Source: Escherichia coli
GTDB taxonomy: Bacteria > Pseudomonadota > Gammaproteobacteria > Enterobacterales > Enterobacteriaceae
DNA length: 64,000 bases
Strand: one strand, 5' to 3'
Assembly (NCBI GenBank): GCA_002099625.1
Contig: GCA_002099625.1_4857.1
A program made the translations under genes and the position numbers. The first letter of the stretch is position 1, and each line of letters opens with the position of its first letter. Below are positions 6,745-63,649 of the stretch, one piece after another. The notes under the pieces are model-generated. The model made no database searches. It saw only the letters and a program-made list of their open reading frames with translations, and was not told where the DNA came from.

Positions 6745-6755
6745 CGGAGACCCCA

Positions 6756-9500
6756 ATGGAAGATATTAGTAAATTAACGGGCGACCCCGCGGTAGCTGCC
6801 ATACTGCGTAAGTCCACGAGCCCGTCGGCTCAGCAGCAACGCGGTAAGCGTGAAGATGGCGGCGTTACACCAACCCGTACAGAACTCACGGGCATTGCGA
6901 GTAGCCGCATTCGCACCGTTAAAAATGCCGAACGTATCTTTGATGCGCTCCCTGAGTTAGAGGTCATTGTTACCATCGCGACCTCCTCACTCCTGTCCAC
7001 AAAAGATTTGATTAACACCACGCTGATTTACGACAACGTGGCTGATATCCCGATCGACCTGCGTCAACAGTTGTTGGAACCTGTGCGTGAATTCCATGAC
7101 CACACGCGCCAGTTACCCAACAAACTGTATCAGTGGATTTACGATGCACTGAAATCCAAAGGCGCGAGCCCGGTGTTGCTGATTTCAGATACCGGATTCG
7201 ATGAACTCTTCGGCTTAAAGCCGTCTGTTGCAACCGAATCGTTGCGCCGTAGCCAATCTGACTTCTTTGAACGTCAGTTGGGTATCCTGGGCAAGATTGG
7301 CGGTGAAAACAAACCGAAGGTTGGTGTAGAAAGTATTCTGGGCCGTGCACGTGGCGCTGACAAGCCCACCAAGCCACAAACCATTAAACTTAACTTTGCA
7401 GCAGCCCCTAACAGTCCGTTTAAAGCAGACGGTATGTTAGCTTCCCTGGATATCGTTATCACCGACAACCCGCGTATTACCCTGCTACCAGAGGCTTATC
7501 GCCGTGTGGCACAGGAGAATGCTCGCACCGGCCTGTTCGGTCAGTTAGAGCAGTACGCATATGAACAACCTTCTACGCCGACAGGTGCGTCAGAGTATAA
7601 CGCTGACCAGTTCACAGACAGTGAACAAGAGAAGGCAAAACTCGGTTTAATCAACATCGGCGACCTCAACGAAGCGTACCAGAAAACGCCTGAGCAAAAG
7701 CTTTACGGCGAAGTACCGAAGATGAGTTTCTCCGATGCCAACAAAATCGAATACACGGAACGATTACTGCCAGCAGAGTCCACACTCCCGCTCGTTATCG
7801 GCGACGATGTTCGTAACCCCATAGGTTATCTGGCCATCGTTGACGAAATGGGTAACTTCATTAACTCGCGCTCCACACTTTACGGTGATGCGAACTTCAT
7901 GAACTACCTGAACAACGACGGTATGGTGGATTCAACAATCAACCGTGCGAATCTGGGGATGGGCAACACAACCCGAATCACACCAGACATTGCTAACCGC
8001 TTAACAGCGCGTTATGGTGAAATTGCTGAAGACCAGCTAACCAAAGCTCTGGGTGAGGCGTTGGGTGGTGCTGAGATTAGCATGACAGTAACCGAAACGT
8101 TCAGCCGTATCATGCTGGCGCGCCATCTGGCAAAACGTCATACGCAGGTTATCTATATTCCTGCGGAAAACCTTTGCTATTTTGCCACGGACTTTGATGA
8201 AGATGGTATCGGTGTATCTATTACCGAACGCTCGTTCGTTATCTCTACTGTCCGTATGGCGCTGTTGTTCGCTACCATGAACTCTGCGGTGTTGAACTCT
8301 GCACGTCACATGCAGTACGACATTGAGTTGGCACCAGATGACATGAACGGTCAGAAAACAATTGACCAGCTGAAAACAGACATCATGAACTCCTATAACC
8401 GTCGTCAACCGATGTGGGGGGACATGAACGACACCTGGGCAATGACGACAAACGCAGGTATTGCGTTTAACGTTATTGGTAACGACTACTACGGTAGTAC
8501 CAAAGTGTCTGTGTCGGACACTACGCCGGATTATAAATACCCGGATAAGGATTTCGACGAAGGTCTGTTACGACGTACTTGTCACATCGCAGGTGTTGAC
8601 CCTGACCTGGTAATGACCCCCGAGAACATCGAGTTTGCTTCACAGATCTTCTCTAAATCGTTACTGGTCACCCAGCAGGTTGTTAAGAAGCAAGAGATTC
8701 TCTCTAAGCCACTGACACGTTACGTAGTTAATGGGATGTTGGCCTCTCCGTCGTTGCAATCAGCGATGATTAAAATCATTGCAGAGTACATCAATGCTAA
8801 CGGCAATGGGATGACTACTGACCAGATTACGAAAAAGGTCTCTGAGTATCTGGCTGCGTTTATCAACGGTATGAAAGTAACCTTACCACCGCCAGACACC
8901 TCTGCAGCAGCTTCGCAGATGGAGCTGTTCGATAAACGTACGGAGTTCTTTGAGAAGCTGGCTGATCTGGTTGTAACGGATGACATTGCTGCGCAACTCC
9001 AGCAAGAAGGTATCTCGATGGACCCGAACGATCTGAAGACGATGATCAAATCCTTCTATACGCGCAACTGGCTGCGTAAACAAGGTATTGAAACCGACTT
9101 CTTCGATCTGGTTTACGACGATGATTCTCGTCAGGACAACATCACCATGATGACTGATGAAGCGATGGCTGCTTCGAAAACGCTGATTCAATTGGCGAAA
9201 CGTTTCACCGGGCGACTGGAAACGTTAGCGAAGAATGCCGACCTTGATCCTAACGATGCTTCCGGCGGATTCGGTGGTGGTTTTGATGCGGGCGGTGACA
9301 CCGGCGGTGGTGATGGGGATCTCGGCGGTGGGGGTGACGATGATTTAGACCTCGATCTCGATACGGATAACGGCACCGGTGGTGATAGTACAGAGGAAAC
9401 TACTGAGTCGACCGAAACCACGGAAACAACTACCGAGGGAACGGAAGGCACAGAAGGCGGTGAAGGAACTACCGACGACAACCCAGACAACGTCCTCTAA
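6756..9500 (+). CDS. hypothetical large protein (914 aa) with acidic Gly/Asp/Glu/Thr-rich low-complexity C-terminal tail; possibly virion-associated
   Basis: ATG with GGAGA 5 nt upstream; last ~75 aa are GGFGGGFDAGGDTGGGDGDLGGGGDDDLDLDLDTDNGTGGDSTEETTESTETTETTTEGTEGTEGGEGTTDDNPDNVL; followed by a strong bidirectional terminator. Confidence 0.6.
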   Translation: MEDISKLTGDPAVAAILRKSTSPSAQQQRGKREDGGVTPTRTELTGIASSRIRTVKNAERIFDALPELEVIVTIATSSLLSTKDLINTTLIYDNVADIPIDLRQQLLEPVREFHDHTRQLPNKLYQWIYDALKSKGASPVLLISDTGFDELFGLKPSVATESLRRSQSDFFERQLGILGKIGGENKPKVGVESILGRARGADKPTKPQTIKLNFAAAPNSPFKADGMLASLDIVITDNPRITLLPEAYRRVAQENARTGLFGQLEQYAYEQPSTPTGASEYNADQFTDSEQEKAKLGLINIGDLNEAYQKTPEQKLYGEVPKMSFSDANKIEYTERLLPAESTLPLVIGDDVRNPIGYLAIVDEMGNFINSRSTLYGDANFMNYLNNDGMVDSTINRANLGMGNTTRITPDIANRLTARYGEIAEDQLTKALGEALGGAEISMTVTETFSRIMLARHLAKRHTQVIYIPAENLCYFATDFDEDGIGVSITERSFVISTVRMALLFATMNSAVLNSARHMQYDIELAPDDMNGQKTIDQLKTDIMNSYNRRQPMWGDMNDTWAMTTNAGIAFNVIGNDYYGSTKVSVSDTTPDYKYPDKDFDEGLLRRTCHIAGVDPDLVMTPENIEFASQIFSKSLLVTQQVVKKQEILSKPLTRYVVNGMLASPSLQSAMIKIIAEYINANGNGMTTDQITKKVSEYLAAFINGMKVTLPPPDTSAAASQMELFDKRTEFFEKLADLVVTDDIAAQLQQEGISMDPNDLKTMIKSFYTRNWLRKQGIETDFFDLVYDDDSRQDNITMMTDEAMAASKTLIQLAKRFTGRLETLAKNADLDPNDASGGFGGGFDAGGDTGGGDGDLGGGGDDDLDLDLDTDNGTGGDSTEETTESTETTETTTEGTEGTEGGEGTTDDNPDNVL

Positions 9501-9562
9501 ACAAAAAAGAAAAAGAAATAAGGTTTACCTCTCCCTTCGGGGAGAGGTACCTTTTCTTTTTT
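9501..9562. terminator. bidirectional intrinsic terminator between convergent genes
   Basis: Hairpin TACCTCTCCC-ttcg-GGGAGAGGTA (9526-9549) flanked by an A-run upstream and CTTTTCTTTTTT downstream, so it has a U-tract on either strand. Confidence 0.7.
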
Positions 9563-9863
9563 AATCTTCTGTAGCAGCTTTGGGTTTATTAACCAGTTCG
9601 TCGAGCATGATACCAATCGCCAGAGGGTCGTTCTGGAAAGGTTCTAGCTTTTCCAATACCTTTGTATCCTTTGCTGCTTTTAACGCCTTCAGGAGGCCTT
9701 TACGGGCGTTATAGAAGATTTGCCAGCGACGTCCATGACTGATCGCTGTTTTGGCTTTGTGGAAGTCGGCTAAGAAAGCTTCAGTCGCTTTGTTTTCAGG
9801 TAACTCAAAGCGAAAACGCACACTACGCTCAAAATCCATGTTGACAACAATGAACTTTACCAT
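9561..9863 (-). CDS. hypothetical protein
   Basis: 100-aa ORF, ATG start with GAGG nearby; preceded by an AT-rich palindrome. Confidence 0.45.
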   Translation of the reverse strand: MVKFIVVNMDFERSVRFRFELPENKATEAFLADFHKAKTAISHGRRWQIFYNARKGLLKALKAAKDTKVLEKLEPFQNDPLAIGIMLDELVNKPKAATED

Positions 9864-9875
9864 GCTCGAACCTCA

Positions 9876-9894
9876 TTATAGAGCTACTCTATAA
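9876..9894. promoter_or_regulatory. perfect 8-bp-arm inverted repeat TTATAGAG-cta-CTCTATAA next to the RBS of 9561..9863
   Basis: Read directly; on the minus strand it reads TTATAGAGtagCTCTATAAtGAGGttcgagcATG, i.e. a hairpin or operator immediately 5' of the SD and containing a TATAAT hexamer. Confidence 0.4.
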
Positions 9895-9897
9895 TAA

Positions 9898-10164
9898 TTA
9901 CGCCAGCGTAATGTGGTACTTATCAATGTCAGGGAATCGCTCTTTGATCATCCCGCAGAACATATCTAGCACCGGATCAGTTTTTGCGGCCTTCTCCATC
10001 TCAGGAAAAACGCTACGCAGTGGCACGCCAGGGTTCTGCCCTGCCGTTTTCTTAAGCTCTTCTTTATACTTTGCCAACAGAGATTTAACCCCTGTTGTCT
10101 TCGGGAAGCCACACCCTGCGACCCCATCGTTTTCAAAATAGATTACTGCTTCAACACTAGACAT
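9898..10164 (-). CDS. hypothetical small protein
   Basis: Track ORF starts at a GTG (10182); in-frame ATG at 10164 (MSSVEAVIYFEND...) has GGAG about 9 nt upstream. Confidence 0.45.
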   Translation of the reverse strand: MSSVEAVIYFENDGVAGCGFPKTTGVKSLLAKYKEELKKTAGQNPGVPLRSVFPEMEKAAKTDPVLDMFCGMIKERFPDIDKYHITLA

Positions 10165-10184
10165 TTTAATACTCCATTTCACGG

Positions 10185-10222
10185 TAGAATAAAAAATAAT
10201 AATAGGAGACCCGAAGGTCTCC
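10185..10222 (-). terminator. intrinsic terminator downstream of 10230..11906
   Basis: Hairpin GGAGACC-cgaa-GGTCTCC (10205-10222) followed on the minus strand by a T-rich run (plus-strand GAATAAAAAATAATAATAG). Confidence 0.6.
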
Positions 10223-10229
10223 GTATTAC

Positions 10230-11906
10230 TTAGTACAACACTGGTGCAGTTTTCTCACCATTGCTCAGAAGCAGATAGGTGTGCTGCGGCAGCTGCATCA
10301 ATACAATTGCATGTGGCACGTTTTCCTGCACAGCTTCGTAGATAGATACAACAGGGTCTGCGGTATTGCCCAAAGACGCTACCGTAACCACATCATGCTT
10401 ATCAACGGAATGGTACATGCCTGGAATTACAATAGTGAACTGGCTCTGAATCAGATTAACTACTTTGCCGGAATCGCTCAGCTTAATAGTCAGTTTGCGC
10501 AGAGAGTTCGCCACCATCAAGAACAGGTCACGGAACCAGTCTTCATATTCACTGACGCCGTTGTCGCCAGCGGTTGCAGTGAACAGATCTTTTACGAAGA
10601 AATCAATATCGCTGATTTTGCGTTCGAAATCGATGGCTTTGAACTTCGGCACATCTTTACCGCGCTTAGTGCCCAGCGACAGCGCATTGTGTACCAAGAA
10701 CGTGATGTTCGCCAGGTACGCATTAGCAAAGCGAGAAATCTCACTGATAACCACTTCTGCTTCGCTGCTGTTCGCAATCGCATAATCGTGCAGTTCTTTC
10801 GTGTTCTTACGCAGTTCATCGATCGTACGTTTCACCTTAGCCATGATAGTTTCAACATCTTCTACCAGCGCCAGGCTGTCGAGATCGGATTTCAACGCGT
10901 CGTGCTTAGCAACAAATTGCTTCATGCGTTCGCACATATCAGTGTTAACACCGACCAGATACGCGCGATAACTATCCCGTGCACGCACAATCAGGTCAGC
11001 CCCGTCGTAGAAAACAACCTCTTCATTACCGTTAAAGATATCTTGCAACGGTGTAGCCCAATCACGCGTTTCCGCGTAAACAGATTGCTTAATGCGACTG
11101 TTAGCTTCCTTCGCTGGAATCGACATTTTAAGCTCGGGGGTTTTCAGCTCGTGAAGTGCGTAGTCTTCCATCAAATCAATCTCCTGCAGAATGTTGTTAA
11201 TTGGGCCATTGGTAGTGTCCTTCTCGGTTTCTTCTGTTGCGCCGAGTGGGGAAAGCACTGGGTTATTAACTGTAGCATTAGACACCGGCATTGGTTGTAC
11301 AGGCACCTGTGCTGGTTCAGGCTGGGGCTGTTGTGCTGTGGCTGGGACTACTTGCGCCGGTTGTGGGTTCAGGATAGGATCACTAACCAGGTTAAGACCT
11401 GCACCGCCAGCAATCACGGTTAGTGCCGCATCCGTGTTACCAATCTTAACGCCACCGGATGGCGCAGAAGACATGGTCAAGCCATCAGTAACACGCACAC
11501 CGCCAGAACTGTTACCGCCCAGTAACCCGCCTGCGTTGCTACCACCACCTAAACCACCACTGCCACCCAAACCGCCGGACTGCTGAGAACGAATTTCGGC
11601 AAGAATCTTACCGACTTGTTCCCAAGCATTAACCAGTTTGGTGTGACGATCGTCGTTATACGCGTCGCCTGCGTTATGCACCTGCTGATAGGCAGCTGCT
11701 TTATACGCATCGACTGCATATGCGATAACCTGTGCTTCACTACCCCCTTTGGATGCTGCCCATGCCGCAACATACGTCGCAATCTTTAACGCCTGATCTG
11801 GCGGAATGCTACGACTACGCATCACGTTATTCAACTGCGACAGTACCGCGTCCTGATCGAGGTGTTTAACGATGACGTTTTTGATTTGTTCAACAGTAAT
11901 GCTCAT
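10230..11906 (-). CDS. hypothetical two-domain protein with internal Gly-rich and Pro/Gln-rich linkers
   Basis: 558-aa ORF; internal SGGLGGSGGLGGGSNAGGLLGGNSSGG followed by PQPAQVVPATAQQPQPEPAQVPVQPMPV; AGGAG RBS upstream. Confidence 0.55.
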   Translation of the reverse strand: MSITVEQIKNVIVKHLDQDAVLSQLNNVMRSRSIPPDQALKIATYVAAWAASKGGSEAQVIAYAVDAYKAAAYQQVHNAGDAYNDDRHTKLVNAWEQVGKILAEIRSQQSGGLGGSGGLGGGSNAGGLLGGNSSGGVRVTDGLTMSSAPSGGVKIGNTDAALTVIAGGAGLNLVSDPILNPQPAQVVPATAQQPQPEPAQVPVQPMPVSNATVNNPVLSPLGATEETEKDTTNGPINNILQEIDLMEDYALHELKTPELKMSIPAKEANSRIKQSVYAETRDWATPLQDIFNGNEEVVFYDGADLIVRARDSYRAYLVGVNTDMCERMKQFVAKHDALKSDLDSLALVEDVETIMAKVKRTIDELRKNTKELHDYAIANSSEAEVVISEISRFANAYLANITFLVHNALSLGTKRGKDVPKFKAIDFERKISDIDFFVKDLFTATAGDNGVSEYEDWFRDLFLMVANSLRKLTIKLSDSGKVVNLIQSQFTIVIPGMYHSVDKHDVVTVASLGNTADPVVSIYEAVQENVPHAIVLMQLPQHTYLLLSNGEKTAPVLY

Positions 11907-14771: not shown

Positions 14772-14786
14772 AGATAATATCTATCT
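14772..14786 (-). promoter_or_regulatory. conserved 15-mer AGATAATATCTATCT (copy 1 of 5), putative phage promoter
   Basis: Exact 15-mer shared with four other sites; 39 nt upstream of the ATG of 13728..14732 on the minus strand. Confidence 0.55.
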
Positions 14787-15576: not shown

Positions 15577-15591
15577 AGATAATATCTATCT
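15577..15591 (-). promoter_or_regulatory. conserved 15-mer AGATAATATCTATCT (copy 2 of 5), putative phage promoter
   Basis: Exact 15-mer; sits between the capsid-candidate terminator (15602-15640) and the start of 14838..15536, 40 nt from the ATG. Confidence 0.55.
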
Positions 15592-22640: not shown

Positions 22641-22664
22641 CACCTAGGTAATATATATCTGAAA
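22641..22664 (-). promoter_or_regulatory. conserved element CACCTAGGTAATATATATCTGAAA (copy 1 of 2), putative phage promoter
   Basis: 24/24 identity with 31146-31169 and similar over ~40 bp; about 50 nt upstream of the ATG at 22588; minus-strand reading contains TATATATTAC. Confidence 0.5.
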
Positions 22665-22695
22665 TTATTTTTATTCAGAGTACACCCTCTATAAC

Positions 22696-30280: not shown

Positions 30281-30338
30281 TATAAATACTCCTTACGATT
30301 AATGGTCGATTACATACGGTTTCAGGCTAACGTAATAT

Positions 30339-31145: not shown

Positions 31146-31169
31146 CACCTAGGTAATATATATCTGAAA
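31146..31169 (-). promoter_or_regulatory. conserved element CACCTAGGTAATATATATCTGAAA (copy 2 of 2), putative phage promoter
   Basis: 24/24 identity with 22641-22664; lies between the terminator 31187-31227 and the ATG at 31100, about 45 nt upstream. Confidence 0.5.
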
Positions 31170-58475: not shown

Positions 58476-58490
58476 AGATAATATCTATCT
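58476..58490 (-). promoter_or_regulatory. conserved 15-mer AGATAATATCTATCT (copy 3 of 5), in a 66-bp divergent intergenic region
   Basis: Exact 15-mer; 30 nt from the minus-strand ATG at 58445 and 21 nt from the plus-strand ATG at 58512, so it could serve either gene. Confidence 0.55.
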
Positions 58491-61965: not shown

Positions 61966-63600
61966 TTAAGAATTAAACCATTCAACTTCTTCTAACTTGC
62001 GACGTGCATTCAACACCATAAACTCCGCCAGGCTATTGTGCAGTGACAAGTGAGGTATATAGTTTGGCTGATCCGTCTCACACTTCAGCAGCGCAGCTGC
62101 TTCTGGTGTAGCCCTGAGATGGAACAGATACGGGTTGATGTGATCCTTGTGTAACAAGGTCAGTGATTCCCGTGGTGTAGATTGCGGTTCGAGATTACGC
62201 GGGTTGCGATACTCCTGAAGATAATATCTATCTAAATCTGCTTTGAGTTCAGATCGAATTGGGTCGGCTGCATAACCGGCAGACATCTCAGAACGCACCA
62301 TATTGCAACTTAACAGTTGCGCAACGTCATACATTCCATAATTGAGATAAGTTGCCTGTGCCAACGCCATACCGTAGCGAAACGCTTCTGGCCCACATTC
62401 AGTATACGTCTTATAATGCGCGCTACGATGGAGTGCTAATGCGACTAACCATTCGTGCAACGTATAGACAGGACCGTCATGTGTTGCCAGTTGCGAATCA
62501 ATCAATAACTTAACATCTGCTGGAGCGGCATTATCCAGACGCATTGTTTTCAAGAAAGAGCGGTATTCTTTAAATACGTACTCGGTACGGACGTATTCTT
62601 TCATCTGTGCAGGAGAACGTGCCTGCACCAAATCCATGGCGTTTATCTTACCCTTTTCGCCATTGAATACCACACTTTCCGGATGCGCTTTTAACAGCAC
62701 CGGCTGGTTAGAGATTTTGTTTGCAAAACCTGTTTCAATCTCTTGTTTAACCAGAAAATACATGCCGGTGACGATATTGTTGTTAACCATGATTTCAACC
62801 GGTAATTCACCACCGACTTCACGGACAGCCAACAATTTAATAATAGCATACGCCAGGATATAATCTTCCATCATATCCGTGCCATAGCCCCGCACCGTAG
62901 CCAGTACCGACAAACTGGTGCTGTTCGTACCTTTGTTTGCCAGTTCTTTTTCTACCTTTTCCATCACTGTCTGTAGGAACCCACGCAGTTTCGGAATAGC
63001 AGGTAAAGACATGACTTCCGTGTCTTGAAGCATCTCCAGACAGTATGTCAGATTGTACACCATTTTCCGGTGTGTTTCGATTGGCAAGTTCTTACCTATC
63101 GGGAACGTCCCCATGGTGAGGAACACCGGAATATACGGTTTAATCATCAGAACCAGTATCAACAACTCGTAATAGTCCGGACGAATGTACGTCATCGCTT
63201 CCGGATAATTACTGTTCATTTCATCGTGCGTATCTTCCATGTTCTGCGGAATCCACAGCTTATCGATGGGATACAGCTTACGATACACTTCGGCCTTGTG
63301 GAACTTCGCAATCGTCTGCACAATCTTCGGCATGTGCTTACGCTGCGTTTCCGTCGATTCGTTTGCCAGCTCGTCCAGCATCAGATACGCCATGAACAGT
63401 TCATCTTGTTCGTCTGGCGTTAAATAATCCCACACGCGTTGTAATTCCATGAAGAGAATGTTGTCGCGTGCAATCTGTTTACCTTTAACAGTGATGTAGT
63501 CGGGTGCGTTGTTATCCTTCCGATAACGTAAGCCAATAAATGTGACCTCTTGACCGTGATGCTCGATTGTCATCCGGTCTTTAATCTTCGTAATTTTCAT
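61966..63600 (-). CDS. hypothetical protein (544 aa)
   Basis: ATG with GGAG RBS; promoter 15-mer 34 nt upstream; one further 15-mer copy is embedded in its 3' coding region. Confidence 0.55.
   Translation of the reverse strand: MKITKIKDRMTIEHHGQEVTFIGLRYRKDNNAPDYITVKGKQIARDNILFMELQRVWDYLTPDEQDELFMAYLMLDELANESTETQRKHMPKIVQTIAKFHKAEVYRKLYPIDKLWIPQNMEDTHDEMNSNYPEAMTYIRPDYYELLILVLMIKPYIPVFLTMGTFPIGKNLPIETHRKMVYNLTYCLEMLQDTEVMSLPAIPKLRGFLQTVMEKVEKELANKGTNSTSLSVLATVRGYGTDMMEDYILAYAIIKLLAVREVGGELPVEIMVNNNIVTGMYFLVKQEIETGFANKISNQPVLLKAHPESVVFNGEKGKINAMDLVQARSPAQMKEYVRTEYVFKEYRSFLKTMRLDNAAPADVKLLIDSQLATHDGPVYTLHEWLVALALHRSAHYKTYTECGPEAFRYGMALAQATYLNYGMYDVAQLLSCNMVRSEMSAGYAADPIRSELKADLDRYYLQEYRNPRNLEPQSTPRESLTLLHKDHINPYLFHLRATPEAAALLKCETDQPNYIPHLSLHNSLAEFMVLNARRKLEEVEWFNS
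62219..62233 (-). promoter_or_regulatory. conserved 15-mer AGATAATATCTATCT (copy 4 of 5), embedded in coding sequence
   Basis: Exact 15-mer inside 61966..63600 (encoding DRYYLQ), about 265 nt upstream of the start of 60253..61953; candidate internal promoter. Confidence 0.4.
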
Positions 63601-63634: not shown

Positions 63635-63649
63635 AGATAATATCTATCT
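63635..63649 (-). promoter_or_regulatory. conserved 15-mer AGATAATATCTATCT (copy 5 of 5), putative phage promoter
   Basis: Exact 15-mer 34 nt upstream of the ATG at 63600. Confidence 0.55.

Follow-up and report, generated by a model that had tools for sequence, protein, structure and literature searches.

The window, that is, the whole stretch of 64,000 nucleotides analysed here, is 95–97% identical to the Salmonella jumbo phage SPN3US and its relatives (Seoulvirus). At the locus of interest a short A+T-rich dyad lies directly in front of a 100-aa gene on the minus strand, which corresponds to SPN3US 77607–77909 and is gp80 in the original numbering; window position 9889 is equivalent to SPN3US 77581. 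Upstream of the dyad the minus strand carries, in order, two early-type promoter motifs, gp76, gp77, gp78, an intrinsic terminator and an 88-aa gene (Table 1). Gp77 is an N-terminal fragment of the beta subunit of the non-virion RNA polymerase (nvRNAP), and gp78 of SPN3US is an essential, non-virion protein for which a regulatory function has been proposed (PMC5105663). The terminator 3' of the gp78-like gene is conserved in all of the lineages described below.

Table 1. Coordinates of the features at the dyad locus
Feature	Position in window	Strand	Remarks
Conserved motif ATTATTATAGA, core TA[T/A]TATAG	9888..9898	-	5' arm region of dyad
5' arm of perfect palindrome, ATTATAGAG	9887..9895	-	sequence
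Loop/spacer TAG	9884..9886	-	stop codon of the upstream ORF in pEa29/SPAsTU
3' arm, CTCTATAAT	9875..9883	-	CTATA core 7 nt after TATAG in four lineages; absent in Machinavirus
Maximal predicted RNA hairpin, 11-bp stem including U.G and U-A pairs with the Shine-Dalgarno	9873..9897	-	MFE structure, z = -2.2
Putative transcription start, G of TATAG	9889..9889	-	by analogy with phiKZ and from N14 coupling
Shine-Dalgarno GAGG of 100-aa gene	9871..9874	-	invariant in all orthologs
100-aa gene (SPN3US gp80 / ACQ60_gp186; phrog_10389, function unknown)	9561..9863	-	ORF
88-aa upstream gene (gp79-like, phrog_26703), stop codon 9900..9898	9898..10164	-	ORF
Intrinsic terminator 3' of 558-aa gene (gp78-like), 5' of two small genes	10205..10222	-	terminator scan
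Bidirectional intrinsic terminator between 100-aa gene and convergent portal gene	9526..9549	both	terminator scan

Two of the neighboring proteins deserve mention in their own right. The 558-aa homolog of SPN3US gp78 (10230–11906, minus strand) contains a long Gly/Ser- and Pro/Gln-rich low-complexity segment, and its gene directly follows that for the nvRNAP beta N-terminal fragment; it may be the fifth nvRNAP subunit, a candidate equivalent of phiKZ gp68. The portal protein ends in a long acidic tail of low complexity, rich in Gly, Asp, Thr and Glu (9250–9500, plus strand). At its other end the portal gene is separated from its divergent neighbor by only about 11 nt (window 6745–6756; SPN3US 80715/80727), and the promoters must therefore sit inside each other's coding sequence.

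The 100-aa protein possesses conserved basic residues, and its AF2 model is a beta-alpha fold with a pLDDT of 83.5. Searched against the PDB, this model gave no HTH- or RHH-like, other nucleic-acid-binding, or otherwise informative match. In BFVD it matches an 88-aa phage protein (A0A8E7L441; TM 0.76–0.85, rmsd 1.6, 18% identity), and the modelled structures suggest that the 100-aa protein and one neighboring 88-aa small protein may be structural paralogues.

On the minus (coding) strand positions 9894..9876 read 5'-TTATAGAG-TAG-CTCTATAA-3', with 8-bp arms at 9894..9887 and 9883..9876, and are followed by a T (9875), GAGG (9874..9871), 7 nt and the ATG (9863..9861), which gives a dyad-to-ATG distance of 12 nt. 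The first-pass annotation had described a perfect palindrome with 8-bp arms ending one nucleotide before this GAGG. Its geometry is exact and the 8-bp arms are correct, but the perfect dyad extends one pair further, as 9+3+9 (ATTATAGAG/CTCTATAAT, 9895..9875), and the range assigned to it, 9866–9897, also takes in the Shine-Dalgarno (SD) and spacer. The order on the minus strand is thus GCG TAA (9900..9898) TT-ATTATAGAG-TAG-CTCTATAAT-GAGG-TTCGAGC-ATG, and the first A of the motif ATTATTATAGA is the final base of the upstream TAA stop codon. As RNA the stem would grow to 11 bp, the G and A of GAGG entering into U.G and U-A pairs. TATAAT hexamers, one of which the first-pass annotation had pointed out, are present inside the arms on both strands, at 9890–9895 (plus) and 9880..9875 (minus).

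The palindrome by itself is not beyond chance. Two perfect 8-bp stems with a 3-nt loop occur in the window versus a mean of 1.35 in dinucleotide shuffles, 75% of which contain at least one. Exact or near copies of this particular dyad number one versus 0.15 expected, with no other copy within the window. Fold z-scores are -2.2 for RNA in a 56-nt context and -4.9 for DNA over 35 nt. The many other perfect inverted repeats of the window are G+C-rich intrinsic terminators, while the dyad is A+T-rich and lacks a T-run. We rejected an intrinsic terminator here: the A+T-rich stem is followed by TGAGGTTCG, and the terminator scan reports the true neighboring terminators and not the dyad. Rfam covariance models gave no match overlapping 9866–9897, even at E <= 10. 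An element at 22694..22668 (minus), TTATAGAG-GGTGTA-CTCTGAATAA, has TTATAGAG...CTCT in common with the dyad and pairs over only 4–5 bp; it is located directly 3' of a terminator-like hairpin and 5' of an early-type promoter.

Conservation across related phages

Orthologous loci were gathered from GenBank phages, IMG/VR, metagenomes and Logan/ENA contigs. They fall into about seven lineages whose proteins are 40–78% identical to the 100-aa protein of the window: the SPN3US type; pEa29, SPAsTU and L031; Erskinevirus (Asesino, phiEaH2); an uncultured 220-kb group (L022–L025, L032); and Machinavirus-like lineages in three groups (pEa4/Caitlin/L034, Machina/pEa6, and L027 with L033). A metagenome scan for further lineages returned only those already collected.

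It is conservation in these diverged relatives that raises the dyad above chance and marks it as functional. The core of the 5' arm, TA(T/A)TATAG, is invariant in 12 to 18 orthologous loci from the roughly seven lineages, usually in the form TTATTATAGA, and upstream of the ATG this core and the SD are the only blocks common to all lineages. Across the same lineages only 2 of 88 third-codon positions of the 100-aa gene are invariant, that is, silent sites are saturated, and strong purifying selection thus acts on the motif. Between SPN3US and Machina the ATTATTATAGA region is the sole shared block of at least 8 nt upstream of the gene. The first-pass annotation had reasoned that a unique and unconserved dyad would speak against a function; the dyad is unique in the genome, but it is strongly conserved at the orthologous locus. 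What that annotation missed is that the conserved part is the 5' arm, which from its sequence looks like a phage RNA polymerase initiator motif.

The motif stays with the 100-aa gene whatever precedes it, be this a gene from any of three unrelated small-protein families or the gp78 terminator itself. The stop codon of the upstream ORF may precede the motif, fall within it or lie in the hairpin loop, and the reading frame differs. Since the motif is kept despite exchanged neighbors and frames, a coding explanation can be ruled out. Its distance from the ATG also varies (23–34 nt after TATAGA), which is easier to reconcile with a promoter than with a fixed RNA fold.

The 3' arm has a narrower distribution. 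In four lineages, whose silent sites are 27–56% identical, CTATA(A/G)(T/C)GAGG follows TATAG at a fixed spacing of 7 nt, with variable central nucleotides (AGTAGCT, ACTAGCT, CCGCCCA or CTGCCCA); it is absent in the Machinavirus-like groups. Among the hairpin-bearing sequences 7 of the 11 stem pairs never vary, one alternates between U-A and U.G, and three are lost by mismatch in some; compensatory changes, with both sides of a pair altered, number zero. Outside this locus the element does not recur. In IMG/VR the full architecture, TTATTATAG-N7-CTATA-NN-GAGG, matches 7 orthologous loci only, and up to 2 mismatches the 240-kb SPN3US genome holds no other convincing copy of ATTATTATAGA; a repeated element was accordingly rejected.

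Between the gp78 terminator and the TTATTATAG motif is a slot (window 9898–10164, minus strand; L002–L013, L030–L035) that holds differing small genes. They belong to three unrelated families, found alone or combined, one of which carries Pfam PF21825 "Sequestin"; Erskinevirus has none. From its sequence content the slot, with the terminator on one side and the motif on the other, resembles a hotspot of cassette exchange.

Predicted Shine-Dalgarno accessibility

We compared the predicted probability that the SD is unpaired in read-through RNA (110 nt upstream) with that in RNA beginning at the G of TATAG (Table 2).

Table 2. Predicted probability that the Shine-Dalgarno is unpaired in the two RNA forms
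Source	Read-through RNA	RNA from TATAG start
Window	0.50	0.71
pEa29	0.01	0.54
L031	0.00	0.60
phiEaH2	0.05	0.55
Asesino	0.05	0.29
L022	0.01	0.32
Machina	0.00	0.73
pEa6	0.03	0.69
L027	0.16	0.78
L033	0.29	0.71
pEa4/Caitlin/L034 (open in both)	0.99–1.00	0.99

As a base rate, 5.5% of 182 SPN3US genes show a value of <= 0.05 for the long RNA together with >= 0.29 for the short one. The recurrence of SD sequestration has a binomial p-value of 3e-4, a figure that overstates the support, the hairpin-sharing lineages not being independent. The predicted pairing partner of the SD differs by lineage (GGCCUU, AGC.GC, CCCC, ACCUUCA or CUCAUUAC) and is found in every case at TATAG or 5' of it. The motif of the pEa4 group is itself predicted to pair with codons 4–8 of the gene.

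For the window the effect is smaller. Occlusion of the SD is partial, with two of its four bases in the stem, and with a rank of 43 of 269 for pairedness the structure of the translation initiation region is nothing out of the ordinary. The RNA hairpin which the first-pass annotation had placed against the SD is indeed predicted and even overlaps the first two SD bases; its effect is however modest in the window and the stem shows no covariation, so that this RNA reading is supported in part.

Putative promoter classes of SPN3US

Phages of this kind transcribe with their own RNA polymerases (PMC7598289). We found no transcription start site or promoter data for SPN3US-like phages in the literature, nor a published early-promoter consensus for SPN3US, and promoter classes were derived from k-mer enrichment upstream of SPN3US genes. 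The early class comprises about 25 copies of AAAnnnTTTCAGATAKATATTAYCTnAGGTGAGA in SPN3US. This motif of about 28 nt, AAAnnnTTTCAGATA(G/T)ATATTA(C/T)CTnAGGTGAGA, is mostly found after terminators and before gene clusters; its copies in the window, all on the minus strand, are at 15589..15577, 14784..14772, 22658..22646, 31163..31151, 58488..58476, 62231..62219 and 63647..63635. It is conserved at orthologous sites in Erwinia phage Machina and is presumably the early (virion RNA polymerase) promoter of this phage group. With a position weight matrix built from some 20 genomic copies, the best score near the dyad is -22.8, versus 17–41 for members of the class, and an early (vRNAP-type) promoter was rejected for this site.

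The second class is bipartite. T[TC]ACG-N14-TATG occurs at 19 sites in SPN3US versus about 2 at other spacings, and T[TC]ACG-N14-TATAG at 5 versus about 0.6, which makes for a very sharp peak in spacing; the sites are mostly just upstream of genes. In the window the pattern is present on the minus strand at 30335, 24057, 14831, 9079 and 4494, the last two inside coding sequence and that at 9079 antisense to the portal gene. Because TATAG replaces TATG at N14 from T[TC]ACG, TATAG would be a used variant of the start motif in SPN3US. The dyad locus cannot be counted as a member of this class, having TTACG at N13 in the window, TTACA in SPN3US and no box elsewhere, nor as a phiKZ-type late TATG as such, since the site reads TATAG.

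A third class, lacking the box, is (A)GTATGA. TATGA is enriched 2.7-fold near starts versus controls of the same composition. Also pertinent to TAT(A)G as a start motif, TATAGGAGG is conserved upstream of the DprA-like gene in SPN3US and Machina, and 4 of the 12 genomic copies of TATTAT(A)G lie 33–65 nt upstream of starts. TATAG itself shows no enrichment upstream of SPN3US genes (13/199 versus a 4.8% baseline), and neither TATAG nor TTATAGA is significantly enriched upstream of genes relative to same-composition controls.

Phage phiKZ has an AT-rich early consensus, and its nvRNAP promoters are marked by AAanTTACc as a middle box at about -24 and by T(-3)ATG(+1) as the late motif (PMC4666361, PMC7598289, PMC7618050). 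The classes of SPN3US match this scheme, and by this analogy TAT(A)G probably acts as an initiator element in SPN3US, comparable to the TATG of phiKZ.

A candidate promoter within a hairpin, its alternatives and known parallels

Judging from sequence and folding, the dyad is most likely an ordinary kind of phage gene control. The reading we favor, to which we would assign a probability of about 0.4, is that of a promoter embedded in the 5' strand of a hairpin occluding the ribosome binding site (RBS), as in gene e of T4. The dyad would then be a gene-specific cis-regulatory element of the 100-aa gene with two halves performing different jobs. The 5' arm would provide an initiator-type promoter core, TATTATAG, with a TAT(A)G start motif for the phage's own non-virion RNA polymerase, and transcripts arising there would have their 5' end at G 9889 or an adjacent base, with 26 nt of open leader. 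RNA reading through from the early nvRNAP operon upstream and from the 88-aa gene would instead carry both arms and fold a 9–11 bp hairpin reaching into the SD; in the relatives further pairing would lengthen this hairpin and bury the whole SD. Read-through RNA would be poorly translated, and RNA from the internal promoter well translated. We infer the start at 9889, the choice of polymerase and the difference in translation between the two RNA forms largely by analogy.

The combination of one invariant arm, changing partners, variable spacing, independence of neighbors and relief of the SD fits a promoter joined to RBS masking. In particular, if the 5' strand is constrained as a promoter, one would expect it to stay invariant while its partners change. 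An upstream supply of RNA could come from the two early-type motifs and the nvRNAP-beta/gp78 operon, but the terminator at 10222..10205 intervenes. Several points argue against the model. The motif is TATAG, whereas the phiKZ definition is TATG; a -24-type box is not conserved at the locus; the genome holds the extended motif only once, unusually for a promoter class; and TATAG is not enriched upstream of genes. On the RNA side, the SD of the window is only half occluded within an initiation region of ordinary structure, the SD of the pEa4/Caitlin lineage is open in both RNA forms, and the stem has no compensatory base changes.

The best of the competing explanations, itself improbable, dispenses with an internal promoter. 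The hairpin and its lineage-specific extensions would mask the SD purely as RNA, either in coupling to the upstream ORF or as an attenuator, and the AU-rich 5' arm might be a protein or RNase site. The upstream stop codon is well placed for coupling: in the window it precedes the 5' arm by 0–3 nt, pEa29/SPAsTU have it in the loop, and in Machina-type phages it falls within the motif. A ribosome terminating there would therefore unfold the structure. SD sequestration in the read-through RNA of most lineages fits as well, as does the A-to-G change in the 3' arm, which keeps a U.G pair and is neutral at the RNA level only. Furthermore, the space between the terminator and the first small gene is too short for a promoter, which implies that read-through expression occurs at the locus. 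Structure does not however explain an invariant arm with changing partners and no compensatory changes, occlusion in the window is weak, and in Erskinevirus and L022-type phages no ORF ends near the hairpin, the terminator alone preceding it, so coupling is not general.

It seems rather unlikely that the 5' motif alone is functional and that its palindromic partner in SPN3US-like phages is a historical accident. Chance alone would be expected to yield such palindromes in 64 kb, Machinavirus has no 3' arm, covariation is lacking and the effect on SD accessibility in the window is weak, all of which would suit an accident. It would not account for the persistence of the CTATA core and its spacing in four lineages of such low silent-site identity, nor for the recurrence of SD sequestration with different partners.

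We are more doubtful still of a DNA operator, in which the half-sites of TATAG-N7-CTATA would be contacted by a dimeric regulator of the phage, perhaps the 100-aa protein itself, that represses or activates this gene. The half-sites and the exact 7-nt spacing are kept in four lineages around a variable center, the element is unique in the genome and locus-specific in IMG/VR, as expected of an autoregulatory site, and the 100-aa protein has its conserved basic residues. Machinavirus lineages however retain only one half-site, and A/G and T/C changes, tolerable as RNA wobble pairs, disrupt the outer symmetry. The AF2 model of the 100-aa protein lacks a nucleic-acid-binding match in the PDB, and the analysis yielded no candidate for the binding protein. 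The operator-like DNA dyad with TATAAT envisaged in the first-pass annotation thus fared poorly: it has no sigma-70 promoter, its hexamer is TATAAC or TATAGT in relatives, and no dimeric regulator could be tied to it.

A long shot, too, is that TATTATAG-N7-CTATA is a gene-specific control site of a new type, acting as a DNA dyad or an extruded hairpin read by the jumbo-phage transcription machinery or by the 100-aa protein, and tying expression of that protein to the adjacent nvRNAP subunit operon. If so, it would supply the first sequence determinants beyond TATG for nvRNAP promoter choice.

A host sigma-70 promoter, suggested by the perfect TATAAT on both strands, can practically be dismissed: a start about 7 nt after the sense-strand hexamer would fall 3' of the SD, the hexamer is not conserved, positions 9300–10400 contain no -35/-10 pair with 16–18 nt spacing (1.2 expected in shuffles), and phiKZ-related phages are independent of host RNA polymerase (PMC7598289, PMC4666361).

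Four known systems invite comparison. The hairpin promoters of N4 are recognized by a single-subunit virion RNA polymerase and have 5–7 bp stems (PMC4496689). The dyad resembles them in being a DNA inverted repeat with a 3-nt loop near a transcription unit of a phage that carries its own virion polymerase, but the SPN3US annotation includes only beta/beta'-like multisubunit RNA polymerase genes, and the stem is 9 bp, single-copy and not at early genes.

The phage of the window belongs to the same clade as phiKZ and has vRNAP and nvRNAP genes. A short start motif overlapping the presumed start is shared, and the T[TC]ACG of SPN3US 14 nt upstream of TATG/TATAG mirrors the middle/late architecture of phiKZ. 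The differences are that the locus has TATAG and not TATG, that an invariant TTAT precedes it, and that no upstream box is conserved there. It is recognized as an open question what, apart from the 4-nt TATG, defines an nvRNAP promoter in phiKZ-like jumbo phages (PMC4666361, PMC7618050). A concrete test template for this question is provided by the 9-nt start-site-like motif, which does not vary between genera at this single locus, has a built-in RNA hairpin and adjoins the nvRNAP/gp78 operon; the T[TC]ACG-N14-TAT(A)G pattern seen throughout the genome provides another.

In polycistronic mRNAs stem-loops masking an RBS bring about translational coupling. The likeness lies in the upstream stop at or in the stem, where a terminating ribosome would open the next SD. 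Unlike such stem-loops, the hairpin is kept in Erskinevirus and L022-type phages lacking a nearby ORF end, and one of its arms is invariant in sequence.

The T4 genes e (lysozyme), soc, 49 and I-TevI have a late promoter within the 5' strand of an RBS-occluding hairpin (PMC3014915). As in gene e, the 3' strand of the dyad reaches the SD and a conserved promoter-like element is found in the 5' strand; long RNAs are predicted to fold and internally started ones cannot, and the gene lies downstream of a presumed earlier transcription unit. The element would differ in having a TAT(A)G initiator for a multisubunit phage RNA polymerase in place of the gp55-dependent TATAAATA of T4, and in a predicted occlusion which in the window covers only 2 of the 4 SD bases. 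Should the T4-like model be false, the dyad would be an ordinary leader hairpin of a gene of unknown function. Should it be true, we would be dealing with a known regulatory design, placed here on the start motif of a non-canonical jumbo-phage RNA polymerase, and timing by a promoter within an RBS hairpin would have arisen independently in nucleus-forming phages with a wholly different polymerase.
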